Virus record (IMG/VR): IMGVR_UViG_3300017914_001948
Location: 1 to 57,076 of that record
DNA: 57,076 bases
Source: a virus
Taxonomy: Duplodnaviria; Caudoviricetes
Strand: one strand, 5' to 3'
The notes below the pieces were generated by a model. The model had not been told where the DNA came from and did not search any database. It saw only the letters and a program-made list of their open reading frames with translations. Each line of letters begins with the position of its first letter. The first letter of the stretch is position 1. Positions 39,552 to 56,489 of this stretch are shown one piece after another. The translations under genes were made by a program, and so were the position numbers.

Positions 39552-39834
39552 TCTATATACGCAGAATAATTGTCCCTTTTGTGTCATCATGAAAGATAAA
39601 CTTGATGACTGGGGGATGAATTATGAAATAATTAATATTTCTGAAGATGCAAGTGGTAAAGAGTTCCTGAAGTCAAAGGGACATCGTACAGTTCCACAAT
39701 TGTATTTCAAAGATGTTTTGTTGAATACTGTGGATACTGTAGAGTTTACCTTAGAGAATCTATTGTGGGAGATGCGTGAAAGTGTTCCCTCTAAATTTCC
39801 CTGCGAAGATTCTGGTGTTGAGGATATGTCGTGA
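39535..39834 (+). CDS. Glutaredoxin (NrdC/NrdH-like)
   Basis: YTQNNCPFC and HRTVPQLY motifs. Confidence 0.85.
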   Translation: MSNLLSLYTQNNCPFCVIMKDKLDDWGMNYEIINISEDASGKEFLKSKGHRTVPQLYFKDVLLNTVDTVEFTLENLLWEMRESVPSKFPCEDSGVEDMS

Positions 39835-42216: not shown

Positions 42217-42636
42217 ATGTTAAAAAATATTGTAAATAAAATACCAGAATTTTGTTTAAGTCACTGGTTACTTCGAATCCCTCTTGCAATTTTGTTTTTA
42301 CAACAAGGTCTTGATAAATGGCCCTTCTCTGTAGAAGATGCCATTGCAATGGACTTACCACCTCTTGTGTGGTTATTTGTTGTATTAGGTGAGATTGGTG
42401 CAGGCCTTGGATTGTTGTTTGGTGGGTTGTTAGGTATAAAGTTTTGGAACGATCTTCTTCAAGCGTTTGGTGATATGGTTACACGATTTAGTGGTATCGT
42501 TATGTGTTGCATTATGACTGGTGTAATTTGGTTGAGTGAACCAACCAGTCTGACAGACGTACTACTCTATGACAACTATCATGCCCTATTGTGGGTAGGT
42601 GGTTTATTCTTTGCACTAAGAGGAAATAGAACATGA
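42217..42636 (+). CDS. DoxX-family membrane protein
   Basis: LLRIPLAILFLQQGLDK, GEIGAGLGLLFG, TRFSG; about 4 hydrophobic segments. Confidence 0.8.
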   Translation: MLKNIVNKIPEFCLSHWLLRIPLAILFLQQGLDKWPFSVEDAIAMDLPPLVWLFVVLGEIGAGLGLLFGGLLGIKFWNDLLQAFGDMVTRFSGIVMCCIMTGVIWLSEPTSLTDVLLYDNYHALLWVGGLFFALRGNRT

Positions 42637-43152: not shown

Positions 43153-44037
43153 ATGAGTGAATTTGAATTTGATTTTATGCCTCATCATCTTGAAAAAATG
43201 ATCCCAGGCAATAAACAACATGAAGAGTGGTACGCATCGTTATGTGAACTATTACCAAAATATGGCATCACAACACAACGCCGTGTTGCACACTTTGTAT
43301 CGCAATGTGCACATGAAAGTGCAAACTTCAAACGACTCGAAGAAAATCTAAACTATTCTGCAAAAGCACTACGTGCAGTCTTTGGTCGTTACTTCGGTGA
43401 TGCGCCAAAACGTGATGCAGATGAATACCATCGTCAACCTGAAATGATTGCCAACTATGTTTATATGGATGAGTTCCGTAAGTACAAGATGGGTAATGTC
43501 AATGAGGGTGATGGATGGTTGTTCCGTGGCCGTGGTCTAAAACAATTGACAGGCAGACACAACTATACAAAGTTCGGTGAATCTGTAGGTATGACTGCAG
43601 AAGAGGCGGCAGAGTATGTTGCATCGTTCAAAGGTGCAATTGAGTCTGCATGTTGGTTCTGGGACACAAACAATCTAAATGATATCGCAGACACGGATAA
43701 TGTCAAACTCATGACCAAAAAGATCAACGGTGGATCTATTGGTCTTGCAGATCGTCAAGAACGTTATGTAAATGCAATGCGAGTTCTGGATATGGACATC
43801 GAAGATCTGATGGATGAAGATGATGATATTGAAGATATCATTGATGACATCGGAGTATTGCGTAAAGGTTCACGTGGTGACGGTGTCAAAATTATGCAGG
43901 AAGCACTAGGAATTGGTGCGGATGGTGTATTTGGACCAGGCACAGAACGTGCACTAAAACAATGGCAGGCAGAAAATGGTCTTGTAGTAGACGGTATCGC
44001 AGGTCCTGCAACATTTGAGAAACTATTGGAGGACTAA
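43153..44037 (+). CDS. GH19 endolysin with C-terminal peptidoglycan-binding domain
   Basis: AHFVSQCAHES..LEENLNYS, GDGWLFRGRGLKQLTGRHNY, TKKINGG; LRKGSRGDGVK..DGVFGPGT..DGIAGPAT. Confidence 0.9.
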   Translation: MSEFEFDFMPHHLEKMIPGNKQHEEWYASLCELLPKYGITTQRRVAHFVSQCAHESANFKRLEENLNYSAKALRAVFGRYFGDAPKRDADEYHRQPEMIANYVYMDEFRKYKMGNVNEGDGWLFRGRGLKQLTGRHNYTKFGESVGMTAEEAAEYVASFKGAIESACWFWDTNNLNDIADTDNVKLMTKKINGGSIGLADRQERYVNAMRVLDMDIEDLMDEDDDIEDIIDDIGVLRKGSRGDGVKIMQEALGIGADGVFGPGTERALKQWQAENGLVVDGIAGPATFEKLLED

Positions 44038-44319
44038 ATGTCATTAGATATTTTGAATGCAGGTACACGTAACATCATGGAACGTTGTATCACTGCACTA
44101 GGTGAAGATACTGCATGGCAAATCTTTGACAATGTTGTTTCAAACGAAGGTGAAACTCGTGAACAACTTGTACGTGATATGGGAGACGACAATCTTACTA
44201 TGCACGTGGCAATGGAGTGGACTACACATCTAGAACAGAACGATATCGCAGATGCAGATAATCTTGGTATCGTCGCTACAGCACAACAAAATGCATTTGC
44301 AGTCATAGAATCTTCTTGA
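44038..44319 (+). CDS. Hypothetical acidic protein
   Basis: 93 aa with GGAGG RBS, directly after the lysin. Confidence 0.65.
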   Translation: MSLDILNAGTRNIMERCITALGEDTAWQIFDNVVSNEGETREQLVRDMGDDNLTMHVAMEWTTHLEQNDIADADNLGIVATAQQNAFAVIESS

Positions 44320-44344
44320 CATCTAACGATACGTTTGATATAAT
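44316..44344 (+). promoter_or_regulatory. Sigma70 consensus promoter for gp43 (probably leaderless)
   Basis: TTGACA-17-TATAAT; ATG 6 nt downstream. Confidence 0.8.
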
Positions 44345-44350
44345 ACACGT

Positions 44351-46864
44351 ATGTTTTATACCAATGTTGTTCGTTACTCAAACTTTATTCTTTACCGTGG
44401 TTATGATGACCACGGTAAAAAAGTTTTCAAAAAAGAAAAGTTCAAACCAAAGTTCTTTGTACCATCCAAAGAGAAAACTGGATGGCGTGGTTTGGATGGA
44501 AGAGATATCGGTTCGGTTGAGTTCGAAACGATGCGAGATGCACGTGACTGGCTAGAACAGTACAAGTCCGTGGGTGGGTTCGATGTGTACGGAACCACCA
44601 ACTATCTACATCAGTACATCACTGATAAGTTTCCTAAAGAAGTAAAATTTGACCGTGACATGATCAACGTCACGACTATCGATATTGAGACTGACTACGA
44701 AGGTGGGTTTCCCAACCCAAACGTGGCAGACCAACCTGTTCTCGCTATCACTATGAAGAACAATATCGATGGTGTGTACTATGTGTGGGGTCTACAGGAC
44801 TATGATGAATCTGCTGCACTCATCAAACCTGTAAAGTATTTCAAGTGTAAAGATGAACCAGAACTTCTCGCTCGGTTTGTCAATCATTGGAGACAAGAAG
44901 AAAACTTACCAGATGTTATTACTGGTTGGAACGTGCGGTTCTTTGACGTACCGTATCTAATCAATCGTATCAACCGTGTCTGTGGAGTTGAGATGGTTCG
45001 GTTGATGTCACCATGGGGTCTAATCGATCAAGTCAAAGTCAAGAAGATGACTCGTGAAGAAACTACCTATGACATCAAAGGTGTGTCTGTACTTGACTAC
45101 ATTGAATTGTTTCAGAAGTTTGGTTATGCATACGGTAAACAAGAGTCGTATAAACTTGACCACATTGCTCACGTTGTGTTAGGTGAGAAGAAACTATCAT
45201 ATGAAGAGTCTGGTTCTCTACGTAACTTGTATAAGGATGACTTCCAACGATATATCGACTATAACATGAAAGATGTGCAGTTGGTGGATCGTCTTGAAGA
45301 CAAGATGGGACTTATTACCTTGGGTATGACTGTGGCGTACAAGGGTGGTGTGAACTACCAAGATGCGTTTGGTACTACAGGTATCTGGGAATCTATCATT
45401 CACAGAAAACTAAATGAATCAAAAATTGTACCATCTGCAAACAAACCACAGAATGAGAAGGCAGACTTCGCAGGTGGTTATGTGAAGAACCCAGAGGTGG
45501 GTGCGCACGATTGGGTAGTGTCGTTTGACTTGAACTCACTGTATCCTAACATCATTGTTCAGTGGAACATGTCACCAGAGACTTTGACAGATCGTCAAGT
45601 AAATGGTGGAGTAGATTATTATCTGTCTATGTTTGGTAGAGATGCGGAGATGGTTCATCCTGCACACAAAGAAGATAACCTTACAGTCGCTACCAATGGA
45701 TCTACCTACAGTAAGAATATTGACGGTATGATTCCTAATATCATTATTGAATACTATGATGAACGTAGAATTGTAAAGAAACAGATGTTGTCTGCAGAAC
45801 AGTCTTATCAGAAAGAGAAGACATACGAATTAGAGAAACAGATTAACACACTGCACAACCAACAGATGGCTATTAAGATTTTGATGAACTCTCTGTATGG
45901 TGCAATGGGTAATCGTTACTTCAAGTATTATGACCTTCGTATTGCGGAAGGTGTCACACTGACTGGTCAGATGGTTATTCAGTGGGCAGAGAAAGCAATC
46001 AACAAAGAGATGAACAAAATTCTAAAGACTGATGGTGAAGACTATGTTATCGCTATCGACACTGACTCTTTGTACATCAACTTTGGTCCTATGGTAAAAC
46101 AGTTGAACCCCAAAGATCCTGTCAAGTTTCTTGATAAGATTGCAAACGATCACTTCGAACCTCTACTCAAGAAGGCGTATGATGATCTGTTCAAGGGTAT
46201 GAACTGTCACAAACCACGGATGGAGATGTCACGTGAGGTCATCGCAGACCGTGGTATTTGGACTGCAAAGAAAAGATACATTCTCAACGTGCACAATTCT
46301 GAAGGTGTTCAGTATGAAGAACCTAAACTGAAGATGATGGGTATCGAGGCAATCAAGTCCTCAACTCCTGAGATTTGTCGTGATAAGTTCAGAGAGGCGT
46401 TCAAGATTATTATCTCGTCCACAGAGAAAGAAACACAGGACTTTATCCAACGGTTCAAACAAGAGTTCAAGTCTCTACCACCTGAGTCCGTTGCATTTCC
46501 ACGTGGTGTGTCCAACATTGTAGACTGGTCAGATCGTAAGAATGTGTACAAGAAAGGCACACCCATTCACGTGCGTGGATCTCTACTATACAATAAACAG
46601 TTGAAGGATTACAAACTTACAAACAAATATGAATTAATTGAAAATGGTAGTCGTATCAAATTCTGTTATCTCAAAATGCCTAATACGTTGAAAGAGAACG
46701 TGGTATCATTCCCTGATGTGATCCCACAAGAGTTTGGACTACATAGATACGTAGATTACGACAAACAGTTTGAGAAGACATTCATCGAACCATTGAAGAT
46801 GATACTTGATGCGATTGGTTGGAACGTAGAAGAACAACAAACTTTGGAGGATTTTTTTGGATGA
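44351..46864 (+). CDS. gp43: Family B DNA polymerase gp43
   Basis: DIETD and GWNVRFFD exonuclease motifs, [28 protein letters not shown]-terminal TLEDFFG clamp-binding motif. Confidence 0.98.
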
Positions 46865-47217
46865 AAGCAGGTAAAGTATGGGGTACGACAGAACTTATTG
46901 AAGCAAATGGTGCTTTAGAGTTTCATCGTATTCAAATGAATAAAGGCGGAGTGTGTTCTAAACACCTCCATGAATTTAAATGGAATGGTTTCTTTGTTGA
47001 AAAGGGCGTAATGTTAGTTCGTGTTTGGCAAAAAGATTATGATCTTGTTGATGAAACTATTTTATATGAAGGCGATTATCATAAAGTAAAGCCTGGCGTA
47101 TATCATCAATTCGAATGTTTAGAGTCAGGTATTGCGTATGAATTGTATTGGGCTGAGTTTAACCACAATGACATTGTAAGAGAAACGGTTGGTTTTATGG
47201 AGAACGAAAATGTCTAA
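46861..47217 (+). CDS. Cupin-fold protein (sugar isomerase-like)
   Basis: [26 protein letters not shown]. Confidence 0.75.
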
Positions 47218-47584
47218 CTTTGAACGAGTACGAGTATTCATGGAAACTTTCGGACAGGAAGTAAAACGCAATCCAGAGTTTCCAGACCAAGAGACTGCAG
47301 CACTGCGACTAGAGTTGATTGCAGAAGAACTTGGTGAACTCGAAGAGGCAATTGCGAACAAAGATCTGGTTGAGGTTGCAGACGCACTCACAGATATTCT
47401 GTATGTGACATATGGTGCAGGACATGCATTTGGACTTGACCTTGATGAATGTTTCAAAGAAGTGCAACGTTCTAATATGAGTAAACTTGGACTAGATGGT
47501 AAACCTATCTATCGTCAAGATGGTAAGGTTCTAAAGGGTCCAAACTTCAAGGAACCTGATCTAAAAAAGACTTTACATCTGTAA
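47210..47584 (+). CDS. All-alpha NTP pyrophosphohydrolase (MazG/PRA-PH-like)
   Basis: LIAEELGEL..EVADALTDILYVTYG, EVQRSNMSK, DGKVLKGP. Confidence 0.88.
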   Translation: MSNFERVRVFMETFGQEVKRNPEFPDQETAALRLELIAEELGELEEAIANKDLVEVADALTDILYVTYGAGHAFGLDLDECFKEVQRSNMSKLGLDGKPIYRQDGKVLKGPNFKEPDLKKTLHL

Positions 47585-47600
47585 AGTTTTCTGGTATAAT
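47572..47600 (+). promoter_or_regulatory. Sigma70-type promoter (probably leaderless)
   Basis: TTTACA-17-TATAAT with TG; ATG 6 nt downstream. Confidence 0.75.
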
Positions 47601-47606
47601 AAACTC

Positions 47607-48719
47607 ATGATATTAGAACATTCAGATGCAGTTTATGCAGCACAGAAACTTACGGAATACTTTAGAGACTTCGGACGTATCGATGATTACTTTCGTGCTC
47701 GTAAAATAGAACGTGTAAAAAACATTCCTACACCATTGCCTGGTTTTAGTATGGAAGACGATCTATTTCAAGATTATAATATGCATCCAGAGGATATGAA
47801 CTTTGTAATTACACAAATTTCCTCATCCACATTTGATACTCTGTTAGAAAAAGTTGCATCGTTTTCACCTGACAATGCGCCAGGCAAAGAAATGAAACTG
47901 GTTATCAAAGAAACTAATACAAATACTATTGTTGGTTTTATAAAATTAGGTTCACCACTTATCAACTCTAAACCCAGAAATGATTACTTAGGTGGTGTAC
48001 CAGATCTACCAGTATTCAACAAACGTGCTATCATGGGTTTTAACATTGTTCCAGTTCAACCATTTGGGTACAACTATCTTGGTGGTAAACTTATTGCAGC
48101 AATCTGTAACTCACATGAAGTACGCAGAAAATTAAACAAGAAATACGATACGGAATTTTGTTTATTCGAGACTACTTCTCTTTATGGTAACATCAAGGGG
48201 GCATCCATGTATGATGGTATGAAACCTTTTCTCAGATACAAAGGTGATACTCAGTCTAAGTTTCTATTGACGCTTGGTGAGGATATCTATCCAGAAATGA
48301 AAAAATGGTTCATAGAAAGGAATAATGGTGAAGAATTGATTCACAAGGGTGCGTCTTCACGTAAACTAAAAACGCAAACCAAGATGGTCAGTATTATAAG
48401 ACAAAGTCTCGCTAAATATGATAAACACGCTGCAATTAACTTTTCAAAAGATATTGCAAAAGCAGGTGATGTTACTACACAGAAAAGATTTTATATGGGT
48501 GAGTATGGATACTCAAACGTAAAAGATGTTTTACTTGGTAAGACTGAAACATTGACTAAAGCAGAAAACTTTGACAGGTTTGAACTTGACGGTGTAATCA
48601 CATGGTGGAGAAAACTTGCTACTAAGAGATACAACAAAATGATTGCAGAAGGAAAGGTTCGTAAAGATTTAGAAGTCTGGAATCAGGACACAATGCACAG
48701 GATTGATATTATACGATGA
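47607..48719 (+). CDS. DUF4338/DruA-like protein
   Basis: PGK...GFIKLGSP...RNDYLG, PVQPFGYNYLGGKL, FETTSLYG..SMYD pattern, recognised from memory. Confidence 0.6.
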   Translation: MILEHSDAVYAAQKLTEYFRDFGRIDDYFRARKIERVKNIPTPLPGFSMEDDLFQDYNMHPEDMNFVITQISSSTFDTLLEKVASFSPDNAPGKEMKLVIKETNTNTIVGFIKLGSPLINSKPRNDYLGGVPDLPVFNKRAIMGFNIVPVQPFGYNYLGGKLIAAICNSHEVRRKLNKKYDTEFCLFETTSLYGNIKGASMYDGMKPFLRYKGDTQSKFLLTLGEDIYPEMKKWFIERNNGEELIHKGASSRKLKTQTKMVSIIRQSLAKYDKHAAINFSKDIAKAGDVTTQKRFYMGEYGYSNVKDVLLGKTETLTKAENFDRFELDGVITWWRKLATKRYNKMIAEGKVRKDLEVWNQDTMHRIDIIR

Positions 48720-49702
48720 ACATAACAATTGCACGATTACGGTCTAACGTAAAATATAACGGCCCACTAGAAACCGTCTTAGATAGTTTCTTTGAGAACT
48801 ATGTAAAGTGGATGAGAGAGAATCCACAGTATAGATACGACACTTACAACGTATCATTTAATCAACGTAGACCAGTACGAACACCAGAGACTATCGATAA
48901 GGCAGATGTAATTGTAATTCCATCAGATTCAGAATTCAGATACCATGGTGAACTGCAAATGAATCCCAAAGACTTGGCAAAGTCTCAATCACACATTGAA
49001 AAGATTGCACCATTCTTTGAGGGTAAAACTGTTATCATGTGGAGAAGTGATAGAGGTGACACCGAAGAACTTTATCGAAGTTTCTTGCCTAACATAAAAA
49101 ACTTTATCACAATAGACGAAGTAGATTTTAGTGGAAACATTCATGGTATGAAGTATCACTTTATCCAGAGATTAAAAAACCCATTGGCGGAAATGATTGG
49201 TACAGAGAAGACAATCGACTTTGGATATTGGGGTAGAATGAAACATGGTAACGATAGAGAAAAGACAATCAGAAAAATCTATCGTTCAGAACTATCAACT
49301 GTGATGATTGGTGGATTTCCATCTGGTGTAAAGAGACAGTCTGCTTGGATTAAGGATTGGAACAAATTATATCCACTATTAGAACCAGCAAGATGCACTC
49401 TTTGTTTCAATTGGATTGACCAGACGGCGACAACTAGTAGGTATCCAGAAGCACTTTCAATTGGTATGATCCCATTTGTCTGGCAAGACTATGATATCAA
49501 CAACACATATAATATTGATCCATGGCAACGAATCACTTCACCAGAAGAGTTAGTAGAGAAGGCAATATTACTAAGAGACGAGAAATTTTTTGAAAAAAAA
49601 TTAGAAGAATTTCGTGCCAACTATTCTAAGGTATTGCTAACACAGGAAGAATACTTTAAATTATTTTCAGAAAAAATGAATTCTGCCCTTGACTTGTTAT
49701 GA
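48716..49702 (+). CDS. GT-B glycosyltransferase resembling T4 DNA beta-glucosyltransferase
   Basis: IDFGYWGRMKHGNDREK and TSRYPEALSIGMIPFVWQDYD resemble the T4 BGT C-domain motifs; similar size and syntenic position. Confidence 0.6.
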   Translation: MNITIARLRSNVKYNGPLETVLDSFFENYVKWMRENPQYRYDTYNVSFNQRRPVRTPETIDKADVIVIPSDSEFRYHGELQMNPKDLAKSQSHIEKIAPFFEGKTVIMWRSDRGDTEELYRSFLPNIKNFITIDEVDFSGNIHGMKYHFIQRLKNPLAEMIGTEKTIDFGYWGRMKHGNDREKTIRKIYRSELSTVMIGGFPSGVKRQSAWIKDWNKLYPLLEPARCTLCFNWIDQTATTSRYPEALSIGMIPFVWQDYDINNTYNIDPWQRITSPEELVEKAILLRDEKFFEKKLEEFRANYSKVLLTQEEYFKLFSEKMNSALDLL

Positions 49703-49717
49703 TAACTTTGGTATATT
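49689..49717 (+). promoter_or_regulatory. Sigma70-type promoter
   Basis: TTGACT-17-TATATT with TG. Confidence 0.6.
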
Positions 49718-49759
49718 GTATAAGTAAGATGAATTGAAACTTGAAGAAGAGGTTAAATT

Positions 49760-51010
49760 ATGAATGTAATTCCGAAGACTATCGTAGAAACTGACTTTGG
49801 TGATGTCCCTGAAAATTATGAAGGGTATCTCTATCGGTTTACTAACTTGGAGACTAATCAGATGTATGTAGGTATTCACAAGGGTAAGTTTGGCGATGGA
49901 TATTGGAACTCTGCTACTGATAAGGATATGCAGAATGAACTTGCTGGTAATGGTAAGTTTAAGTATGAAATCCTTGAGTATGGAGATTATAATACCATGA
50001 CTGCTCGTGAGCATGAAATCTTGAAGTCTGAAAATGCTCCGAATAATCCTTTGTACTACAATAAGACTGTAGGATCTCCAAAGTTTACCACTGTCAGACT
50101 TGAGGAGGTATTGGCAATCGTGGAAAAGATTCGTAATGAAGGATTTCCTATTGCAAAGGAACCCATTGAGACTGTTGTTAATATGAAGCGTTTACAGGTT
50201 CGCACTGAAGATATAAGTGATCACCAGACTGAGATTTCTCAGAAGGTAGACGATGCATTGGGTAACACTGATGGATATATGACTGTCGTTCTTGAGGATC
50301 GTGGCGGTGAAGATATGCGTATTGACGGTAACCACTCTGTCTATGGTATTGCAAAGTCTAAGTATGGTAAGAAAATTAACGTAATGCGTGTGCCCAAAGA
50401 TGTACACGAGGGTTATAATGATGCTGAAGTTCAGTTGATGGGTAACCTCCTGAATGCAAAGCCTGAACGTCCTACTGTTCCTCTTGATGCAGATGATGCT
50501 CTCAAACAGTTGATTAAGAACTTCACTGACTTGGGCACTCCTGTCACTGATGCGTCTAACAAGACACTGTTGATTGCAATGGGATTTTCAACCAAGAAGT
50601 CGAATGCAATTATCAAGAAGGCAAAGGTTGAACAGGATACTTTGATTGCTGCAATGGGTGGTAAGATTAAGATTGATTGGGATGCATCACCCTTTAATAC
50701 TCGTCTTGAAAGCATCCTTGAAGATGCAAAGGATGCCAATACTATGGCACTGACGGTTTCATCTGGTATGGTTCATGTATCTCGTATCTTGAACGAAATT
50801 TACCAGACCAATACTGGTCGTGAACAGTTGAAGCAGAATGCAAAGAAGGAAATTAAGATTTTTGTAAAACATCCCTCTGAATACTACTATAGCAATTGGA
50901 AGGACAAACAGGAACAGTCAGATACGAAGTTTTTGAAGTACTTTGCAAAGCCTTTGGGTATCACTGTTCGTTTTATTGACTTGCCGATGTACGAATCAGA
51001 TATCATGTAA
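49760..51010 (+). CDS. GIY-YIG (Seg-like) nuclease domain fused to a long C-terminal region with a ParB/Srx-like motif
   Basis: GYLYRFTNLETNQMYVGIH..Y, RE.EIL, YYNK; later RIDGNH; GAGG RBS. Confidence 0.65.
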   Translation: MNVIPKTIVETDFGDVPENYEGYLYRFTNLETNQMYVGIHKGKFGDGYWNSATDKDMQNELAGNGKFKYEILEYGDYNTMTAREHEILKSENAPNNPLYYNKTVGSPKFTTVRLEEVLAIVEKIRNEGFPIAKEPIETVVNMKRLQVRTEDISDHQTEISQKVDDALGNTDGYMTVVLEDRGGEDMRIDGNHSVYGIAKSKYGKKINVMRVPKDVHEGYNDAEVQLMGNLLNAKPERPTVPLDADDALKQLIKNFTDLGTPVTDASNKTLLIAMGFSTKKSNAIIKKAKVEQDTLIAAMGGKIKIDWDASPFNTRLESILEDAKDANTMALTVSSGMVHVSRILNEIYQTNTGREQLKQNAKKEIKIFVKHPSEYYYSNWKDKQEQSDTKFLKYFAKPLGITVRFIDLPMYESDIM

Positions 51011-52065
51011 TGAAGATACTACTTCCCTTTCAAGACCCTTACAATCATGCCCTCACTCACCCAATCGTGAGTGGGGGTACTGAAATGTTCTGTAAGAGCA
51101 TTTACGATAACTTTAATACGACAGTACACCAAGTGCCGTATGAGAGTATTGATTATTCTATGAAAGACAAAAAAAAGATATCACGAGATATTATTAATCA
51201 TGCAGAAAATATTGGTGCAGATGTTATTATATCAAACTTTGCACAAGCAATATATTGTGGTTCTGAAATTATTAAATCCCACATACCAATTATGATTGTT
51301 GAACATTGTGTATATCCAATGGCATCATGTATTACCAGATGGAACAATGCAATAGACAATGGACACTCTGTCTTTTGGGTTTCCAAGTGGCAAGAAAAGA
51401 AATATAAAAAGATGGCAGAAAGAACTAACCAGAGAGTTGTTCCGATAACAGGTTATATTAATCCATCTTATTGTAAACAGAAACCCCAAATAAATGAAAC
51501 AGAATATGATTGTGGAACTATAGGCAGATGTGATAGTGGTAAGAATCCATTTAAATTAAAACACATGACAAAGGGTAAAGATATTTCAAGTCTTGTTATC
51601 ACATCATCTACACAACTGAAGAAAGATATTCCATATTATAATAAAAATAAAGATTGGGATGACGTTGTGTGGAATGAACCGTATGATAAAGTTATAGATA
51701 ATATTGCTAAGTGTAACACATACTTTTCTACATGGAATGGTGAAACTTGGGGAATTACTGCAATGGAAGCTTTGTCCTGTGGTGTACCTGTCATATTGAA
51801 TTGTGATAATGATGGTGACCATGCATCTGAAATAATTCCAGCACATAAAGATCATTACAAAAAGATTCCAAACAATGACAAGGATGCATTATATAATGCA
51901 ATAAAGAGTTTTGATGTAGACCGAAAAGAGATTCAAGAAATGACTTGGGAAAAACATAGTCTAGATGGTTGGAAGTTACAGTTTGCAGATGCTGTGAATA
52001 GAACCATAGATAATTTTAACAGATATAATTTTAACAGACCAAGTTTATCTGCATTTATGTCTTGA
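51010..52065 (+). CDS. GT4-family glycosyltransferase
   Basis: SGGTEMF, VSKWQ, IGRCDSGKN, ETWGITAMEALSCGVPVI. Confidence 0.88.
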   Translation: MKILLPFQDPYNHALTHPIVSGGTEMFCKSIYDNFNTTVHQVPYESIDYSMKDKKKISRDIINHAENIGADVIISNFAQAIYCGSEIIKSHIPIMIVEHCVYPMASCITRWNNAIDNGHSVFWVSKWQEKKYKKMAERTNQRVVPITGYINPSYCKQKPQINETEYDCGTIGRCDSGKNPFKLKHMTKGKDISSLVITSSTQLKKDIPYYNKNKDWDDVVWNEPYDKVIDNIAKCNTYFSTWNGETWGITAMEALSCGVPVILNCDNDGDHASEIIPAHKDHYKKIPNNDKDALYNAIKSFDVDRKEIQEMTWEKHSLDGWKLQFADAVNRTIDNFNRYNFNRPSLSAFMS

Positions 52066-52090
52066 CAAACGGTATCTTATTTGATATATT
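52062..52090 (+). promoter_or_regulatory. Sigma70-type promoter (probably leaderless)
   Basis: TTGACA-17-TATATT with TG; ATG 6 nt downstream. Confidence 0.7.
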
Positions 52091-52096
52091 ACTGTT

Positions 52097-53026
52097 ATGC
52101 TTTCTTTTACAATATTCAAAAATCGTTTTGATAATAAAACAAATAAGAAACTACAAGTCAACGGATTCGATCAGTTGGAACAACTGTTGTATTCATTGTC
52201 TAAAAAACCACTGAAAGGCAAAGAAGATGCGCAACTTATTTCACCTGCAACTTATACAGATGGGACTACACGAGCCAACAAGAATGTATTATCTTGGTCA
52301 AATTGGTGTGCTGTTGACGTTGATGATTTCGAATTTGAAGGGGACCTAACAAATGTTCTATATGATAAGTTTGGTCACTATCGTTACATTTGTTATAGCA
52401 CTGCAAGCAGTACGGAAGATCTACCAAAGTTTCGTCTTGTCTTCCCTCTTACTGGTGATGTACGGGCCGATGATATCAAACATTTCTGGTTCTCGTTACA
52501 GTCAGAACTTGGGGAACTCGGTGACAAGCAGACTAAGGACTTGTCTCGCATGTATTACATCCCTGCGAAATATGACGGCGCTTATAACTTTATATTCAGT
52601 AATCCTAACGGCAATCCTATTGATCCAAATGAGTTGATGGTCAAATGGCCCTATGCGGAGAAGGCAAATCTAAATAACTTCTTTGATAGACTTCCTGACG
52701 AAATACAAAAACAAGTCATGGAACATCGTAAATCAAAACTAGACAACACAAATATAAACTGGTCATCGTATAGAGACTGTCCATTCTTTCCCAGAAAGTT
52801 AGAATCAGAATATCGATTGATTACTAACACTGGTTGGTATCACAAAATGTATCAAATCATGGTGGCGATTGCAGGTAACGCTATCAATAAAAAATATCCT
52901 ATTACTTCTGCAGAAATATCTAAGATGTGTAGAGAACTAGATATGGAGACTGGTAACTGGTACAAGAACAGACCACTAGATAAAGAAGCAGACAGAGCGT
53001 TAGAGTACGTTTATAAAAATATGTAG
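52097..53026 (+). CDS. AEP/primase-polymerase-like protein
   Basis: AVDVDD, YSTASS...PKFRLVFPL, D..TKDLSRMYYIP. Confidence 0.65.
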   Translation: MLSFTIFKNRFDNKTNKKLQVNGFDQLEQLLYSLSKKPLKGKEDAQLISPATYTDGTTRANKNVLSWSNWCAVDVDDFEFEGDLTNVLYDKFGHYRYICYSTASSTEDLPKFRLVFPLTGDVRADDIKHFWFSLQSELGELGDKQTKDLSRMYYIPAKYDGAYNFIFSNPNGNPIDPNELMVKWPYAEKANLNNFFDRLPDEIQKQVMEHRKSKLDNTNINWSSYRDCPFFPRKLESEYRLITNTGWYHKMYQIMVAIAGNAINKKYPITSAEISKMCRELDMETGNWYKNRPLDKEADRALEYVYKNM

Positions 53027-53028
53027 GA

Positions 53029-53859
53029 ATGAATATGAAAAATATTGTAATTGTTGGACACGGATATGTCGGTAAGGCAGTTGAGTATGGGTTCAACATC
53101 AAACTAAAGAATAAGATTCAACTCATCGATCCCTTATATAATAATTCAATCGACGATATCACTGGATGTGATGTTTCATTTGTATGTGTACCAACTCCGT
53201 TTGGAGAAGATGGTAAGATTGATTCATCTATTGTAGAAGATGTGACAGAACAACTCTTGGAACAAACTCGTGGGTGGGTCGTTATCAAGTCTACAGTTAT
53301 TCCAAGTGTTGTGGCGAAGTTGAGTGAAAACCAACGAGTAATCTATAACCCAGAGTTTTTGACAGAAAAGAATGCGTTAGATGATTTCGTCAATCCACCT
53401 ATGCATATCTTCGGTGGATCTTCTTCTGCAACTAATATGTTAGAAGAATTATATAAAAACAACAGTCGTTGCAAACCTTGTCCAGTATTCAAAATGTCTG
53501 CACAGGATGCATCTTTTGTAAAATATGGAATCAATAGTTTCCTTGCAACAAAGGTTATGTGGTTCAATCAGTATAAGGAGTTAATTGATCAACATGGTTC
53601 TGATTACGATACTATTATTAATGCTATTGGTACTGATTCCAGAATTGGTCACAGTCACGTTCAAGTGCCTGGCCCTGATGGTCGTAGGGGTTATGGTGGT
53701 GCTTGTTTTCCAAAAGATACATCAGCATTATCAAACTTCGACTACGATAGACACCTCACCATCTTACGTACCGTCATCACCGCCAATAATTACATTAGAG
53801 CTGGATACGAATTAGATGATCGTGAAAAAGAACAAAATGTTGTTTACATGAAACGATAA
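53029..53859 (+). CDS. ugd: UDP-glucose 6-dehydrogenase (short form)
   Basis: GHGYVG, FVCVPTP, IKSTVIP, NPEFLTE, GYGGACFPKD. Confidence 0.9.
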   Translation: MNMKNIVIVGHGYVGKAVEYGFNIKLKNKIQLIDPLYNNSIDDITGCDVSFVCVPTPFGEDGKIDSSIVEDVTEQLLEQTRGWVVIKSTVIPSVVAKLSENQRVIYNPEFLTEKNALDDFVNPPMHIFGGSSSATNMLEELYKNNSRCKPCPVFKMSAQDASFVKYGINSFLATKVMWFNQYKELIDQHGSDYDTIINAIGTDSRIGHSHVQVPGPDGRRGYGGACFPKDTSALSNFDYDRHLTILRTVITANNYIRAGYELDDREKEQNVVYMKR

Positions 53860-53871
53860 CTGTGTTATAAT
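53843..53871 (+). promoter_or_regulatory. Sigma70-type promoter
   Basis: TTTACA-17-TATAAT with TG. Confidence 0.7.
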
Positions 53872-53888
53872 ACAGTAAAGGAGATAAG

Positions 53889-54845
53889 ATGGCGTATATT
53901 GCAATTACTGGTATGGCAGGGTTTATCGGGTTCCACCTTGCACAGAAACTAAAGAAAGATGGTAATGAAGTTGTTGGGTTTGACAACTTCAATGATTATT
54001 ATGATGTGGATCTAAAGGAAGATCGTGCAAGAGTTTTGAAAGAAGACTATGATATTACTGTAAGTAATGTTGATCTGAAAAGTGCAGAAGATGTAGAACG
54101 ATGGATTGGTATTCGTCACCCAGACGTAGTGATTCATCTCGCTGCATATGCAGGTGTTCGTAACTCTATGGAAAACCCTACAGACTATATTGAAAACAAT
54201 GTGGTAGGTACTCACAATCTGATTGAGGCGTGTACAAAGAAAGGTATTCAAAGGGTAATCTTTGCATCTACATCATGTGTCATGGCGGGTAATGAACTTC
54301 CATGGAATGAAGATGACAAGTGCGGTTACCAGTTGAACCCATACGGTTATACTAAATTTACAAATGAATCACAATTTATGGCGAGTACGATTCCGTCTAC
54401 GATTGGTCTTCGATTCTTTACAGTCTATGGCCCTTGGGGTCGCCCTGATATGGCACTCTTTGACTTTACCAAAAAGATTATTGCGGAAGAAGAAATCGAA
54501 CTATTCAACTTCGGTGACATGATCCGTGACTTTACATACGTAGACGATATCGTTCAAGGTATTGGTATCGTAACAAATCATATTATCGAAAATCCAAATC
54601 AAAAAGAAATTTACAATATTGGTAATGGTCGTCAAGTTCCGTTGATGGACTTTGTAGATAATATTGAGAAACAACTTGATCGCAAAGCTATCAAGAAGTA
54701 TGTAGAGAAACATCCTGCAGATACGCAAGCAACTTGGTCTGACACTACTAAGTTACAGTCACTTGGGTACAAGGCAGAAACTTCTATTGAAGAAGGTGTA
54801 GAGAAATTTATAAACTGGTATAAGTGGTATTACAATGTCAATTGA
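53889..54845 (+). CDS. NAD-dependent epimerase (UDP-glucuronate 4-epimerase-like)
   Basis: TGMAGFIGFH, DNFNDYYDV.LK..R, HLAAYAGVRNS, YGYTK, RFFTVYGPWGRPDMA, RDFTYVDD. Confidence 0.9.
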   Translation: MAYIAITGMAGFIGFHLAQKLKKDGNEVVGFDNFNDYYDVDLKEDRARVLKEDYDITVSNVDLKSAEDVERWIGIRHPDVVIHLAAYAGVRNSMENPTDYIENNVVGTHNLIEACTKKGIQRVIFASTSCVMAGNELPWNEDDKCGYQLNPYGYTKFTNESQFMASTIPSTIGLRFFTVYGPWGRPDMALFDFTKKIIAEEEIELFNFGDMIRDFTYVDDIVQGIGIVTNHIIENPNQKEIYNIGNGRQVPLMDFVDNIEKQLDRKAIKKYVEKHPADTQATWSDTTKLQSLGYKAETSIEEGVEKFINWYKWYYNVN

Positions 54846-54954
54846 TTTGTTATATAAAAATATTGCGGAGTTTCATAACATCACAGTGAGTGAACTGAAA
54901 CAACGTATTGTAAATGGTGAACGTCTGGTGCATGAGTACTGGATGTCACAATGA
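54835..54954 (+). CDS. 39 aa hypothetical protein (not in the ORF track)
   Basis: MSIDLLYKNIAEFHNITVSELKQRIVNGERLVHEYWMSQ; fills the gap and overlaps both neighbours (ATGA with 54951). Confidence 0.5.
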   Translation: MSIDLLYKNIAEFHNITVSELKQRIVNGERLVHEYWMSQ

Positions 54955-55379
54955 TTGTAGGTATTACTTTTAGTACGTTTGACTTGTTACATGCAGGTCA
55001 CATTGCTATGTTGCGTGAAGCAAAGACAACCTGTGATTATCTTATCTGTGGACTGCAGGTAGATCCATCACTTGATAGACCAGAGAAAAATGCGCCAGTG
55101 CAGACTCTGGTTGAACGGTGGACACAGTTACAGGGTGTCAAGTATGTGGATGAGATTATCCCATATCAGTCTGAGAAAGACTTGGAAGATATCCTACAAT
55201 TGTTCCAGATCGATGTAAAGATCATGGGACAAGAATATAAAGAAAAAGATTTTACTGGCAAATCTATCTGCACACAACGTGGGATAGAGATATATTATAA
55301 TGACCGTAGTCATAGATTCTCATCTAGTGATTTACGTAAACGAGTTCAAGAAAAAGAAAATGCAGCAAAGATATCATGA
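54951..55379 (+). CDS. Glycerol-3-phosphate cytidylyltransferase (TagD-like)
   Basis: TFSTFDLLHAGH, CDYLICGL, VKYVDEII, RSHRFSSSDLR. Confidence 0.88.
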   Translation: MIVGITFSTFDLLHAGHIAMLREAKTTCDYLICGLQVDPSLDRPEKNAPVQTLVERWTQLQGVKYVDEIIPYQSEKDLEDILQLFQIDVKIMGQEYKEKDFTGKSICTQRGIEIYYNDRSHRFSSSDLRKRVQEKENAAKIS

Positions 55380-55434
55380 ATGGATAAAAGAACAGTATAA
55401 AAAATATCCTGTTGACTTAGAAGACAGTGCGTGA
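55360..55434 (+). CDS. Possible 24 aa peptide
   Basis: MQQRYHEWIKEQYKKYPVDLEDSA; overlaps the end of the TagD-like gene and the uvsX promoter. Confidence 0.3.
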   Translation: MQQRYHEWIKEQYKKYPVDLEDSA

Positions 55435-55440
55435 TATAAT
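55412..55440 (+). promoter_or_regulatory. Sigma70-type promoter for uvsX
   Basis: TTGACT-17-TATAAT with TG, followed by AAGGAG RBS. Confidence 0.75.
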
Positions 55441-55460: not shown

Positions 55461-56489
55461 ATGTCAATTATGGATAAACTAAAAAAGAACAGTAAACTGG
55501 ATAATACATCTGTTCTTGCCGAGTCGAAGTTCTTTACAGAGAAAGACATGGTTCCTACAAGTGTTCCGATGATCAACGTTGCATTGTCTGGATCTATTGA
55601 TGGTGGTCTGGCACCAGGCCTGACAGTTCTTGCAGGTCCATCCAAACACTTCAAAACATCTTTTGCTCTTATCATGGCAAGTGCGTATCTGGAAAAGTAT
55701 CCTGATGCTGCAGTGTTGTTCTATGACTCAGAGTTTGGTTCGCCTCAATCGTACTTTGAACAGTACGGTATTGATGCGTCTCGTGTTTTGCATACACCTA
55801 TCACAAATGTAGAAGAACTAAAGTTTGATTTGATTTCTCAACTAGAGGCATTGAGTCGTGATGATAAAGTTATCGTCGTAATCGATTCTATTGGTAACCT
55901 TGCATCTAAAAAAGAACTAGAAGATGCAATCAATGAAAAATCGGTTGCAGATATGTCACGTGCAAAATCTCTCAAAGGTTTGTTCCGTATGTGCACACCG
56001 TATCTTGCAATGAAGAACATTCCAATGGTGGCAGTAAACCACACGTACAAAGAGATTGGATTGTTTCCAAAAGATATCGTTGGTGGTGGTACAGGTGTAT
56101 ATTATTCTGCAGATAACATTTGGATTCTTGGTCGTCAACAAGACAAGGTTGGGACGGAGATCAAAGGTTATCACTTTGTAATCAATGTAGAGAAGTCTCG
56201 TTATGTGAAAGAGAAGTCTAAGATTCCTATCAGTGTTTCTTGGGACGGTGGTGTGAGTACCTACAGTGGACTACTGGCTGTCGCACTTGACGGTGGGTAT
56301 GTTGTAAAACCATCCAATGGTTGGTATCAACGGAATGGATCAGATAGTAAGGTGCGTGAGAAAGAAACTCTCAACTGGGCATTCTGGCAACCTATCTTTG
56401 AAGGAACTGACTTCAAGGACTTTGTAAAGTCTAAGTTTTCAATCGGTGGTAATGTCTCTAACGAACTTGATATTGAAAATGCAGCATAA
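55461..56489 (+). CDS. uvsX: RecA-like recombinase UvsX
   Basis: NVALSG, AGPSKHFKT, FYDSEFG, IDSIGNLASKKE, GGGTGVYYSAD, KSRYVKEK. Confidence 0.96.
   Translation: MSIMDKLKKNSKLDNTSVLAESKFFTEKDMVPTSVPMINVALSGSIDGGLAPGLTVLAGPSKHFKTSFALIMASAYLEKYPDAAVLFYDSEFGSPQSYFEQYGIDASRVLHTPITNVEELKFDLISQLEALSRDDKVIVVIDSIGNLASKKELEDAINEKSVADMSRAKSLKGLFRMCTPYLAMKNIPMVAVNHTYKEIGLFPKDIVGGGTGVYYSADNIWILGRQQDKVGTEIKGYHFVINVEKSRYVKEKSKIPISVSWDGGVSTYSGLLAVALDGGYVVKPSNGWYQRNGSDSKVREKETLNWAFWQPIFEGTDFKDFVKSKFSIGGNVSNELDIENAA

Follow-up and report, generated by a model that had tools for sequence, protein, structure and literature searches.

In phage T4 the stretch from the DNA polymerase gene to the recombinase gene has the order 43-imm-42-b-gt-segA-uvsX, as the initial annotation of the present locus stated, and gp42 in this slot is a dCMP hydroxymethylase. 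A preprint by Pyle et al. (bioRxiv 10.1101/2023.12.21.572611) reports hexuronic acid placed on 5-hydroxymethylcytosine (5hmC) by way of a glycosyltransferase and an epimerase, and heptose by way of a cytidylyltransferase and a GT-B enzyme resembling T4 betaGT. Lee et al. 2026 (PMC13326640) describe DNA glycosyltransferases of a GT4-like type, NDP-sugar genes carried by phages, and a DNA arabinosyltransferase system of phage HY126. Comparable genes of pelagimyophages have been read as modifying the host O-chain (PMC7029224), an interpretation that counts against a DNA target.

The window analysed here is a whole IMG/VR record (IMGVR_UViG_3300017914_001948; 57,076 nucleotides), about 33% of one genome, from an uncultured, marine, T4-like phage. 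We propose, with a probability of roughly 55%, that its gp43–uvsX interval is an early DNA-modification island of separately inherited parts, and that the phage's own DNA is glycosylated without a gp42-type hydroxymethylase. The ten reading frames previously listed for the interval are all present on the plus strand, and are given below with their flanking genes.

44351..46864, plus strand: gp43 DNA polymerase, left flank (tblastn against phage DNA polymerases; best match Phage C48C1, 53%)
46861..47217, plus strand: small metal-binding cupin (Cupin_2 2.8e-5, below the cut-off; phrog_7851 3e-13)
47210..47584, plus strand: MazG/PRA-PH-type NTP pyrophosphohydrolase (PF01503 1.9e-24; phrog_671 2.6e-43); alternative start TTG at 47189
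47607..48719, plus strand: DruA/DUF4338-type protein (PF14236 1.2e-6; PADLOC DruA 7.8e-9; phrog_19197 5.8e-152)
48716..49702, plus strand: GT-B glycosyltransferase with a T4 BGT-like fold, p328 (structure model; no Pfam family)
49760..51010, plus strand: fused GIY-YIG nuclease domain (phrog_314 8.6e-11; SegE_GIY-YIG 8.6e-5; PADLOC homing endonuclease 6e-5)
51010..52065, plus strand: GT4/GT1-type GT-B glycosyltransferase (PF00534, Glycos_transf_1, 1.1e-7; phrog_2170 1.2e-6)
52097..53026, plus strand: AEP primase-polymerase-like protein (phrog_9765 3.4e-47)
53029..53859, plus strand: short UGDH-family dehydrogenase, 276 residues (PF03721 4.9e-17; PF00984 1.9e-17)
53889..54845, plus strand: SDR epimerase (PF01370 8e-51)
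54951..55379, plus strand: small HIGH-motif nucleotidyltransferase, cytidylyltransferase-like (PF01467 1.5e-13)
55461..56489, plus strand: UvsX recombinase, right flank (homology to sister-locus UvsX; 74-85% identity to sister-locus and C48C1 UvsX)

The 328-residue p328 was modeled with high confidence (AF2; pLDDT 93.9, pTM 0.90). In a Foldseek search of the PDB, ranks 1 to 12 are all T4 BGT or AGT (1j39: E 5e-8, TMq 0.65), and rank 20 is the enzyme of the HY126 system; hhalign aligns p328 with T4 BGT over 160 columns (probability 53%, E 1.4e-4), and PF09198 clusters are among its ESM Atlas neighbours. The BGT-like fold anticipated for this gene product is thus confirmed, and p328 is, at the level of the predicted structure, a relative of the T4 DNA glucosyltransferase. 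It matched no Pfam family, however, PF09198 included. General GT-B enzymes give E-values only about 100-fold weaker than BGT, and the fold matches also take in protein N-glycosyltransferases and TagF.

What occupies this interval in related phages? We compared 28 complete islands spanning AEP to uvsX (26 IMG/VR loci, the window and C48C1). Fifteen carry a ThyA-family gene whose product shares 50-55% identity with T4 gp42 and always keeps C148, D171 and D179; the gene is accompanied by dCMP deaminase, DUF1599 ('nucleotide modification associated domain 1') and either a PF11440 DNA alpha-glucosyltransferase (1.4e-54) or a 338-residue protein with UDP-galactopyranose mutase. Twelve islands, the window's among them, have UGDH and epimerase genes without a ThyA gene, and one is of neither type. 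The two types share components: 8 of the 15 gp42 cassettes contain a cytidylyltransferase homologue, and one island (L027) combines gp42, AGT, epimerase, UGDH and cytidylyltransferase. Across the sister islands the same slot holds gp42, AGT, TAGT, Mom and DNA methyltransferases (Dam, C5); TAGT (PF20691) occurs in three window-type records (G011, G001 and G012; 4e-49 to 1.5e-43), and the complete C48C1 genome encodes a TET_JBP protein (3.3e-17) in an operon with UDP-galactopyranose mutase. The fold of p328, the presence of gp42 and AGT in the same slot of sister islands, and TAGT and TET in relatives make DNA the best reading of the target.

The window has no thymidylate-synthase-type gene, as the initial annotation noted, and searches of it gave no match to ThyA-family, ThyX-independent, TET/JBP or 2OG-oxygenase enzymes; the lack of a base-hydroxylating enzyme within the window counts against a DNA target. 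Among five records bearing the BGT-like gene (95%, 84%, 65%, 41% and 32% complete), none has a ThyA-family gene, and the first three gave no TET_JBP match. Neither ThyA nor TET was found in the complete genome of HTVC008M or in G001, a 55% complete record whose window-type island includes TAGT. Either a further kind of acceptor is used, or the sugars go to something other than DNA.

The timing of expression, predicted from consensus motifs, also bears on the target. The five top-scoring sigma-70-like sites, each matching 11/12 or better and with TG, all lie on the plus strand just upstream of the gp43 (44316-44344, 12/12), DruA-like, AEP (52062-52090), epimerase (53843-53871) and uvsX (55412-55440) genes. 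The DruA-like site (47572..47600, plus strand, 11/12 with TG) resembles an early-type promoter, by consensus match only, and lies 7 bases upstream of the gene's ATG (47607); a 10/12 site with TG (49689-49717) lies by the GIY-YIG gene. Promoter-like sites overall are not above shuffled sequence (59 versus 47.1, sd 7.5). The late motif TATAAATA is absent from 44-57 kb and has seven plus-strand copies at or below 40 kb; late motifs precede the structural genes. With early-type promoters and no late motif, the island is probably expressed early. DNA, host surface and virion coat had all been considered as targets; the p328 fold, the sister-slot content and the early promoters favour DNA, and the other two gain no support.

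The last three genes (Part C, 53029-55379) would supply activated donors. The UGDH-like protein has the NAD-binding and central catalytic domains and, by Pfam, no C-terminal UDP-binding domain: TIGR03026 covers positions 69-294 of 413 (147 bits versus a cut-off of 189.8), and 4a7p is aligned over residues 80-299 of 446, with the GGACFPKD cysteine motif kept. UGDH-like genes in sister loci are similarly short. The SDR epimerase appears closest in sequence to UDP-glucuronate 4-epimerase-type enzymes (5u4q 4.9e-74; 6zl6/6zld 2.2e-42; MoeE5 6kv9 1.4e-38), suggesting that the pair together leads to a hexuronic acid. The earlier proposal of a UDP-GlcA/GalA route is therefore plausible for the epimerase, but synthesis of UDP-glucuronate is not assured because the dehydrogenase lacks the UDP-binding domain. 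The third enzyme, previously called a CDP-glycerol synthase, is a small nucleotidyltransferase that its matches do not separate from others of this kind: TIGR01518 (glycerol-3-phosphate cytidylyltransferase) reaches 71.9 bits and rfaE domain II 71.0, both far below cut-off, and the PDB matches are ethanolamine-phosphate cytidylyltransferase (1.2e-18) and TagD (1e-14). Its product may be a CDP-alcohol-phosphate or an NDP-heptose, with CDP-glycerol one of several candidates.

Such enzymes raise the question of host envelope remodelling, in which the LPS, capsule or teichoic-like surface would be changed soon after infection, perhaps so that competing phages are kept out. UGDH, UDP-GlcA epimerase, a TagD/RfaE-like nucleotidyltransferase and a GT4 are classic envelope-glycan enzymes, the GT4 weakly matches EPS/LPS transferases, and pelagimyophages carrying rfaE, UGDH and glycosyltransferases are the ones taken to modify the O-chain (PMC7029224); early expression is compatible with superinfection exclusion, and no base-hydroxylating enzyme was found in the window, nor ThyA or TET in the BGT-like-bearing records searched for them. 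We nevertheless regard this reading as doubtful: no membrane component such as a flippase, polymerase or lipid-carrier transferase was seen among the ten genes, both T4 DNA glucosyltransferases head the structural matches of p328, homologues of the same three supply enzymes occur within gp42/AGT cassettes, Mom, TAGT, Dam and C5 methyltransferases are neighbours in related islands, and a replication module surrounds the locus.

It is also conceivable, if unlikely, that unrelated accessory genes have merely piled up in this hypervariable interval, in which case the transferases could act on another target such as RNA or a small molecule. Close relatives differ strongly in its content, and the treatment of all ten genes as one pathway is not borne out: the locus comprises a mobile cassette (Part A, 47607-52065), the AEP gene (Part B) and the supply set. 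For at least three of the ten, an independent role is plausible. Part B is a lineage-core replication gene outside the sugar pathway, whose relatives in IMG/VR number at least 597 and always lie close to gp43, and whose residues D74, D76 and D148 are invariant; the complete C48C1 genome has the AEP gene and no gp61 homologue, whereas HTVC008M shows the reverse, and the AEP gene most likely stands in for the gp61 primase. The MazG-like product resembles the DR2231 enzyme, its closest solved structure (2.7e-13), and the GIY-YIG domain (about residues 15-113) is Seg-like; the remaining 300 or so residues may be ParB/Srx-like, a lead from the ESM Atlas alone (0.93 and 0.92). The cupin (WbuC-type match 5.7e-4) occurs only in hydroxymethylase-free sister loci (6/80).

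Part A is a mobile cassette of a DruA-type GNAT, the BGT-fold transferase, the GIY-YIG protein and the GT4. Across distant backbones its DruA-like (83% identity) and BGT-like (87-90%) genes are far more alike than gp43 (43-48%), a pattern that shows lateral exchange. The DruA-like protein has a GNAT-like core and a helical C-terminal part; the suggested DUF4338 relationship stands (PF14236, 28.3 bits versus a cut-off of 27). For Mom, a profile comparison with Mu Mom gave no match, and a poor model (pLDDT 56) gave only weak GNAT matches (Mom at rank 6, E 0.048). The linkage is guilt by association on metagenomic, related and partly redundant contigs: of the 68 BGT-like loci whose upstream sequence extends to 1.2 kb or more, 64 have the DruA-like gene, directly upstream in 36 and with a cytidylyltransferase in between in 13. 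By tblastn label a TAGT-like gene follows the BGT-like gene in 24/80 loci and a Mom-family gene in 6/80; Pfam was applied to these followers at L217 only (TAGT 5e-15; Mom PF25680 7.7e-51). The GT4 had no match in the phage collection searched, and its homologues come after the BGT-like gene in related cassettes. The DruA-like/BGT-like/cytidylyltransferase/GT4 set thus recurs, with shuffled order, on many backbones, and the UGDH-epimerase-(cytidylyltransferase) set is present in 12/12 hydroxymethylase-free islands, neither of which is expected of unrelated genes. Overlaps at the DruA-like/BGT-like (ATGA, read directly in the sequence as previously described) and GIY-YIG/GT4 (TAATG) junctions indicate co-translation; gp43 and the cupin gene also overlap by ATGA.

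Glycosylation of virion or other proteins, with the two transferases decorating phage structural or host proteins, is very improbable: a weak match of the GT4 (3.5e-4, well short of the cut-off) to SdgA, an O-glycosyltransferase of SD-repeat adhesins, HMW1C-type protein N-glycosyltransferases from rank 13 of the p328 fold search, and a GNAT beside a cupin and transferase that could modify protein side chains (compare HTVC008M, whose JmjC-like cupin, without BLAST similarity to that of the window, lies between its BGT-like and DruA-like genes) stand against an island lacking the late motifs of structural genes, surrounding early replication genes, a DNA-centred sister context and, in a non-systematic look by eye, no DS-repeat protein among the translated structural proteins.

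As for glycosylation of the phage's own DNA, the analysis establishes what the genes are, the BGT-like fold of p328, the linkage statistics, the make-up of the sister islands and the absence of ThyA and TET from the window and near-complete relatives; that DNA is the target, which sugars it carries and how the steps follow one another we infer. The acceptor would be something other than gp42-made 5hmC, and its maker either the DruA-type protein or an oxygenase (TET/JBP, as in C48C1) encoded outside the third of the genome analysed here. After replication, the BGT-fold enzyme would place the first sugar on this acceptor group, and the GT4 enzyme would then extend or diversify it, probably with hexuronic acid. 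An anionic DNA sugar, initially thought possibly novel, would not be new in kind, hexuronic-acid and heptose modifications being already known from the preprint of Pyle et al. The GIY-YIG gene may encode a selfish or a discriminating nuclease, either spreading the cassette by homing or cutting unmodified DNA, and the finished sugar would guard the phage DNA against host nucleases.

The stretch between gp43 and uvsX is best read, at a probability of roughly 0.55, as an island for sugar hypermodification of DNA that works without a classical hydroxymethylase. Checks of the ORF identities against Pfam, PHROGs and NCBIfam bore out the ten genes that the initial annotation had placed there, and its account of the corresponding T4 map, with gp42, beta-gt and segA between gene 43 and uvsX, is correct. 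The genes concerned are listed here.

Genes between gp43 and uvsX
46861-47217, + strand, small cupin, overlapping gp43 by ATGA
47210-47584, + strand, MazG/PRA-PH pyrophosphohydrolase
47607-48719, + strand, DruA-like protein
48716-49702, + strand, BGT-like protein of 328 aa (p328), overlapping the DruA-like gene by ATGA
49760-51010, + strand, GIY-YIG fusion of 416 aa with an N-terminal GIY-YIG domain
51010-52065, + strand, GT4/GT1-type transferase, overlapping the GIY-YIG gene by TAATG
52097-53026, + strand, primase-like protein (AEP)
53029-53859, + strand, UGDH-like protein
53889-54845, + strand, SDR epimerase
54951-55379, + strand, cytidylyltransferase
55461-56489, + strand, uvsX, the right flank of the island

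The three overlaps were read directly in the sequence, among them the ATGA junction by which the DUF4338-like and BGT-like genes had been said to be coupled. All genes of the window, a linear IMG/VR contig that CheckV estimates to be 33% complete, run on the + strand. Its gp43 polymerase (44351-46864) is at most 53% identical to those of deposited phages, with Phage C48C1 at the top and cyanomyoviruses next at about 47%, and we therefore assign the contig to an uncultured marine T4-like phage. Queried with the entire island, megablast found no near-identical DNA in the phage collection. Searches of PDB sequences returned nothing significant for p328, the DruA-like protein, AEP or the GIY-YIG fusion, only spurious repeat-protein matches for the GT4 protein, and nothing usable for the cupin. 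The nearest relative of the MazG-like protein is DR2231, which we take to be a dUTPase-like MazG enzyme. Elsewhere in the window we noted a P-loop kinase between regA and Hsp20 (40610-41281; Zeta_toxin at 1.3e-10 and AAA_33 domains), possibly a nucleotide, polynucleotide or sugar-nucleotide kinase, a glutaredoxin between two clamp-loader genes (39508-39834), a DoxX-like membrane protein (42217-42636) and, just 5' of gp43, a likely endolysin with a GH19-like part and PG_binding_1 (43153-44037).

The five strongest sigma-70-like sites between 44 and 57 kb, each agreeing with the consensus at 11 or more of 12 positions and carrying TG, all lie on the + strand, directly 5' of gp43, the DruA-like gene, the AEP gene, the epimerase gene and uvsX. 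The GIY-YIG gene has a 10/12 site ahead of it. Counted together, such sites do not exceed what shuffled sequence yields. For the T4-type late motif TATAAATA the window has nine matches against 3.8 expected; its seven + strand copies (6091, 11640, 12209, 16476, 19846, 24202 and 40022) are all found at or below 40 kb, for the most part in gaps that lead into structural genes, and the island has none. This distribution of promoter-like sites and late motifs fits early expression of the island together with the replication genes.

A search of 1.84 billion representatives returned 163 relatives of p328, and an AlphaFold model built on a 43-sequence alignment reached a pLDDT of 93.9 and a pTM of 0.90. 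When this predicted model, a two-domain GT-B fold closest to solved BGT, was compared with the PDB, T4 BGT took ranks 1-3, 9, 10 and 12 and T4 AGT ranks 4-8 and 11 (top match 1j39, E 5e-8, TMq 0.65), followed with E values about 100-fold weaker by protein N-glycosyltransferases, the phage HY126 transferase, MshA/BshA-type GT4 enzymes and TagF. With all of the top 12 matches falling on T4 BGT or AGT, the BGT-like fold proposed in the initial annotation holds. In the profile comparison with T4 BGT that the annotation had asked for, hhalign aligned 160 columns of the C-terminal, donor-binding half (probability 53%, E 1.4e-4), with the family-invariant residues R242 and E245 in the aligned TxRxxE stretch, but Pfam assigned no family at E <= 0.01, PF09198 (CAZy GT63) included. 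Profile comparison with T4 AGT gave a probability of 5.9%, and the ESM Atlas neighbours of p328 include clusters bearing PF09198. We call p328 a BGT-fold transferase, as its predicted structure indicates, and, given the missing PF09198 match, do not place it in the BGT family. Two proteins of the C48C1 TET operon, the 344-aa protein and GLF, were considered as relatives of p328 and ruled out by comparison as unrelated.

What fills the same slot in sister phages? Among 28 complete islands running from the AEP gene to uvsX (26 IMG/VR loci, the window and C48C1), 15 hold a ThyA-family gene. Five of these 15 genes were aligned to T4 gp42 and are 50-55% identical to it, with C148, D171 and D179 kept; by the criteria for separating hydroxymethylases from the 5-hydroxy-dCMP synthase signature in the accessible text of Lee et al. 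2026 (PMC13326640), the predicted signature of the sister genes is of the hydroxymethylase type and not of the 5-hydroxy-dCMP synthase type. Twelve islands, the window and C48C1 included, have the UGDH-like and epimerase genes, with or without the cytidylyltransferase, and no ThyA-family gene (window-type islands), and one has neither. We infer from these contents that the interval is a DNA-modification slot with alternative fillings. Around the ThyA gene in two gp42-type loci, L027 and L028, Pfam recognises DUF1599 ('nucleotide modification associated domain 1'), a dCMP deaminase, a UDG-superfamily protein, a short SDR and a C5 DNA methylase-like gene, accompanied either by a DNA alpha-glucosyltransferase (PF11440, 1.4e-54) or by a 338-aa protein and a UDP-galactopyranose mutase (1.4e-54). 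With the gp42 orthologue, these genes amount to a full T4-like cytosine-modification set, which occupies the slot at L027:8984-16042 and also in L028, L047, L052 and L067. Homologues of the window's cytidylyltransferase (64-70% identical) sit inside 8 of the 15 gp42-type cassettes, and in L027 an epimerase (63%) and a UGDH-like gene (58%) adjoin the AGT gene.

The likeness to the gp42/BGT/AGT/segA system of T4 lies in the gp43-uvsX slot, in a GT-B transferase nearest to T4 BGT and AGT, in a GIY-YIG nuclease gene that adjoins the BGT-like gene as segA adjoins b-gt, and in the sister phages, which keep gp42 orthologues and the PF11440 AGT in this slot. Unlike in T4, no ThyA-family gene is found in the window or in near-complete genomes bearing the BGT-like gene, the transferase lacks a PF09198 match, and it is coupled to a DruA-type GNAT and accompanied by a GT4 enzyme and phage sugar-nucleotide enzymes.

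The claim that the window has no thymidylate-synthase-type gene was confirmed by a ThyA-family search, and the window, 33% of the genome, likewise gave no match to TET/JBP, 2OG-FeII_Oxy_3 or 2OG-FeII_Oxy_5. With T4 matched as a positive control, the ThyA family was also absent from the complete genomes of C48C1 and HTVC008M, from a 55% complete IMG/VR record with a window-type island (G001), and from all five p328-bearing records searched (95, 84, 65, 41 and 32% complete). Of 14 records, only that of C48C1 had a TET_JBP match (3.3e-17). There a 472-aa TET_JBP protein comes first in an operon (L249:5584-9031, record positions 49583-53030), with a 344-aa protein and then a UDP-galactopyranose mutase after it. 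The record labels each of the three 'hypothetical', and the arrangement suggests a TET-dependent galactofuranosyl DNA modification. TAGT scored above its cut-off in 4 of the 14 records, three of them with window-type islands, in which TAGT and a GT4-like gene replace the window's cassette. The TAGT-bearing records and the TET_JBP of C48C1 tie the hydroxymethylase-free island type to TET-type chemistry in some relatives; in the window, 33% of its phage's genome, and in the nearly complete pelagimyophage-like genomes the searches found no hydroxylase. C48C1 also carries an isocitrate lyase-family gene (L249:176-1417, 4.4e-94) and a di-haem cytochrome c peroxidase-like gene (L249:13991-15412, 3.5e-23), both annotated 'hypothetical', which are possible auxiliary metabolic genes.

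Window proteins were placed by tblastn on IMG/VR loci, 80 of at least 597 AEP relatives, 80 of 110 DruA-like relatives and 80 of 202 p328 relatives being examined. The closest backbone, L074, is 82% identical in gp43, 82% in the cupin and 83% in MazG, and there the order is gp43, cupin, MazG, DruA-like (51%) and AEP, with no transferases. The window's DruA-like protein and p328 are 83% and 87-90% identical, respectively, to those on contigs whose gp43 is only 43-48% identical. Since the similarity of these two proteins lies far above that of gp43, and L074 lacks the transferases, the cassette has moved between backbones. Upstream sequence of 1.2 kb or more was available in 68 p328-relative loci, and a DruA-like gene is present in 64 of them; it is the immediate upstream neighbour in 36 of the 68, and in 13 a small cytidylyltransferase stands between the two. 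The converse linkage fails, with the BGT-like transferase in only 28 of 80 DruA-like loci. The deposited phage collection has the DruA-like gene in 31 records, mostly cyanophages, and a p328 homologue only in HTVC008M; cyanophage homologues of the DruA-like protein are 43-50% identical to it.

Downstream of p328 the partners vary and, by tblastn labels, include the GIY-YIG fusion, GT4, TAGT-like genes (24/80) and Mom-family genes (6/80). In the corresponding interval of the pelagimyophage-like genome L217 (7984-10406) Pfam places TAGT (PF20691, 5e-15), Mom, endonuclease VII-like and MazG/PRA-PH genes by the DruA-like and BGT-like genes. HTVC008M, whose DruA-like and BGT-like homologues are 52.5% and 37.6% identical to those of the window, has right after gp46 a run of three genes, gp104-gp106 (L002:4549-7259), all annotated 'hypothetical', that encode the p328 homologue, a JmjC-like cupin (1.8e-7) and a second DruA-family protein (5.5e-18). 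The window cupin has no BLAST similarity to this JmjC-like cupin, and the idea that the two are the same component was dropped for that reason. In a 95%-complete pelagimyophage-like genome, L180, the gp43-uvsX island also contains an IMPDH/GMP-reductase-family gene (10608-11780, 5.6e-69), which follows the DruA-like, cytidylyltransferase, BGT-like and GT4 genes.

The protein coupled to p328 had been annotated as DUF4338-like, with Mom-type GNATs as a possible second affinity, and profile matches support the first of these. Residues 73-192 match PF14236 at 28.3 bits (cut-off 27, E 1.2e-6), the PADLOC DruA model matches at 7.8e-9, and most of the 120 homologues listed carry a precomputed PF14236 match; Pfam gives no match to the Mom family PF25680, and hhalign against Mu Mom gives a probability of 0.4%. 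Its structural model is poor (pLDDT 56, from a shallow alignment of 10 sequences 52-83% identical), and with that model the PDB search returned weak GNAT matches, the best at E 0.026 and Mom (8bv8) sixth at E 0.048. In L217 a true Mom-family gene (PF25680, 7.7e-51) lies beside the DruA-like gene, and because both occur there together we take them to be different families. Pfam, hhalign and this co-occurrence do not support assigning the DruA-like sequence to the Mom family. DUF4338 is termed a GNAT domain in the accessible part of one report (PMC10853773), and a cyanophage paper, in the text available, names a DruA-like homologue 'mom' on structural grounds (PMC12801897). ORF152 of Synechococcus phage S-SCSM2R (PQ898602.1), recorded as 'methylcarbamoylase mom', is a homologue 49% identical to the window's DruA-like protein.

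The domain matches in Pfam and PADLOC are the likeness to DruA of the Druantia system; here, by contrast, the protein is phage-encoded, stands without DruB-E and matches over a core of only about 120 residues. None of the Druantia partners DruB-E is among its neighbours, which are phage replication and transferase genes, and PADLOC run on seven proteins matched only DruA and one homing-endonuclease model, with no further defence match. The DruA/DUF4338 phage family is very large, at least 6001 sequence clusters being matched.

For the supply of sugars, the annotation of a UDP-glucuronate epimerase-like enzyme is supported. Its nearest solved relatives are 5u4q (4.9e-74), 6zl6/6zld (2.2e-42) and MoeE5 (1.4e-38), ahead of the GalE and WbgU types, and it is closest to UDP-hexuronate 4-epimerases, its predicted specificity; 6zl6 and MoeE5 are presumably UDP-glucuronate 4-epimerases. 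The UDP-Glc dehydrogenase can be retained as to its NAD-binding and catalytic domains, though not as a full-length enzyme. The 276-aa protein has the NAD-binding PF03721 (4.9e-17) with its Rossmann motif and the central PF00984 (1.9e-17), and its GGACFPKD, with the catalytic cysteine, aligns with GGSCFPKD of 4a7p, but it ends at position 294 of the 413-position profile, scores 147 bits against an equivalog cut-off of 189.8, and has no C-terminal UDP-binding domain in Pfam; the next gene begins 30 bases on. Sister loci encode a similarly shortened protein. The label of CDP-glycerol synthase is one of several that would fit: TIGR01518 (TagD) scores 71.9 bits against a cut-off of 165.4, rfaE domain II is tied with it at 71.0, also far below its cut-off, and in the PDB an ethanolamine-phosphate cytidylyltransferase (1.2e-18) is ahead of the glycerol-3-phosphate enzyme TagD (1e-14).

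The AEP-like protein was confirmed as such, but its inclusion in the glyco-modification pathway was not. It belongs to the archaeo-eukaryotic primase (AEP) superfamily by its match to phrog_9765 ('DNA primase', 3.4e-47), Pfam giving no match, and the DxD residues D74 and D76 as well as D148 are invariant across 10 sequences at 53-76% identity. Its gene lies just 3' of gp43 throughout the window's lineage, gp43 being seen in 66 of 80 AEP loci and the remaining loci being truncated. The complete C48C1 genome encodes AEP (54% identical) and lacks a gp61-type primase homologue, whereas in HTVC008M gp61 is present and AEP missing; the query for gp61 was the gp61-like protein of HTVC008M, which found T4 gp61 at 1.5e-52 as a positive control, Toprim_2 having been dropped as a probe because it had no match in the T4 control. 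Given the linkage to gp43, this exclusivity in C48C1 and HTVC008M and the invariant acidic residues, AEP is most simply read, on sequence grounds, as the replicative primase of the lineage, outside the sugar pathway. In these two phages AEP and the DnaG-type gp61 seem mutually exclusive. One primase thus seems to have been exchanged for a non-orthologous one in this very abundant marine T4-like clade, a point of separate interest for T4-type replisomes.

Clusters for sugar hypermodification of DNA have been described from other phages. In the accessible portion of Pyle et al. (bioRxiv 10.1101/2023.12.21.572611), reconstituted metavirome clusters put hexose, HexNAc, heptose, Kdo-like and hexuronic-acid sugars on 5hmC, the HexA product being epimerase-dependent and the heptose requiring a cytidylyltransferase and a T4-betaGT-like enzyme. 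The available text of Lee et al. 2026 (PMC13326640) describes arabinosyl and galactosyl 5-hydroxycytosine systems, GT4-like DNA arabinosyltransferases, phage NDP-sugar genes and ThyA homologues producing 5-hydroxy-dCMP. As far as these texts extend, the island shares with such clusters transferases of the GT-B and GT4 types paired with an epimerase, the cytidylyltransferase with a T4-betaGT-like enzyme, and phage NDP-sugar genes, of which UDP-galactopyranose mutase is an example. The clusters are, however, defined there by a C5-methyltransferase with 5mYOX/TET or by a ThyA homologue, none of which is seen in the window, and the same portions mention neither a UGDH-like gene nor a DruA-type GNAT, although supplementary tables may list similar contigs. 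A DNA glycosyltransferase-type gene beside tailoring enzymes is present at the island, the BGT-fold transferase, GT4, epimerase, UGDH-like and cytidylyltransferase genes all lying within 8.5 kb, and a base-hydroxylating enzyme is not found in the window, 33% of the genome. No DruA-like/BGT-like phage cassette was found described in the parts consulted of the literature on DUF4338, DruA/Druantia, DUF1599 and C48C1.

The strongest rival is remodelling of the host envelope, which we regard as unlikely. In the accessible text of Zaragoza-Solas et al. 2020 (PMC7029224), pelagimyophage rfaE, UGDH and transferase genes are read as modifying the host O-chain, and these 'LPS-related' genes resemble ours in forming small clusters of rfaE-like, UGDH and glycosyltransferase genes in marine T4-like phages; at the window, by contrast, the neighbourhood evidence points to DNA. 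That the genes belong to no common pathway is somewhat less probable again. Protein glycosylation, which the initial annotation had envisaged for a DS-motif virion coat, is improbable, and a look by eye at the 1895-aa protein and the portal-to-capsid proteins showed no DS repeats.

If the island does act on DNA, how might an acceptor arise? Phage Mu Mom is a GNAT-fold enzyme that modifies adenine in a glycyl-tRNA-dependent manner (PMC13219725), and the DruA-like protein resembles it as a putative GNAT-like protein in a phage DNA-metabolism setting, the fold comparison of the two having used a poor model. We tentatively propose, by analogy and as a doubtful rather than a favoured possibility, that the acceptor on DNA comes from the DruA-type protein itself, independently of hydroxymethylase and TET. 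In the manner of Mom, it would acylate or aminoacylate a canonical base; the coupled BGT-fold enzyme would glycosylate the group so added, the GT4 enzyme would extend it with hexuronic acid, and the dehydrogenase lacking its UDP-binding domain may form the uronic acid on the DNA-bound sugar. If true, members of one of the most abundant ocean phage groups would glycosylate their DNA by a pathway that needs neither hydroxymethylase nor TET.

Should sugar hypermodification of DNA prove the correct reading, abundant uncultured marine T4-like phages would exchange DNA-modification cassettes in one fixed slot, some using gp42 with alpha-glucosyl or galactofuranosyl chemistry and others, the phage of the window among them, no known base-hydroxylating enzyme. 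The known chemistry of phage DNA would be extended, and the DruA/DUF4338 phage family would gain a function. Modified DNA can resist virome-library and restriction enzymes, and new DNA glycosyltransferases would be useful reagents. The 'LPS-like' auxiliary genes of marine phages would, in that case, need rereading.
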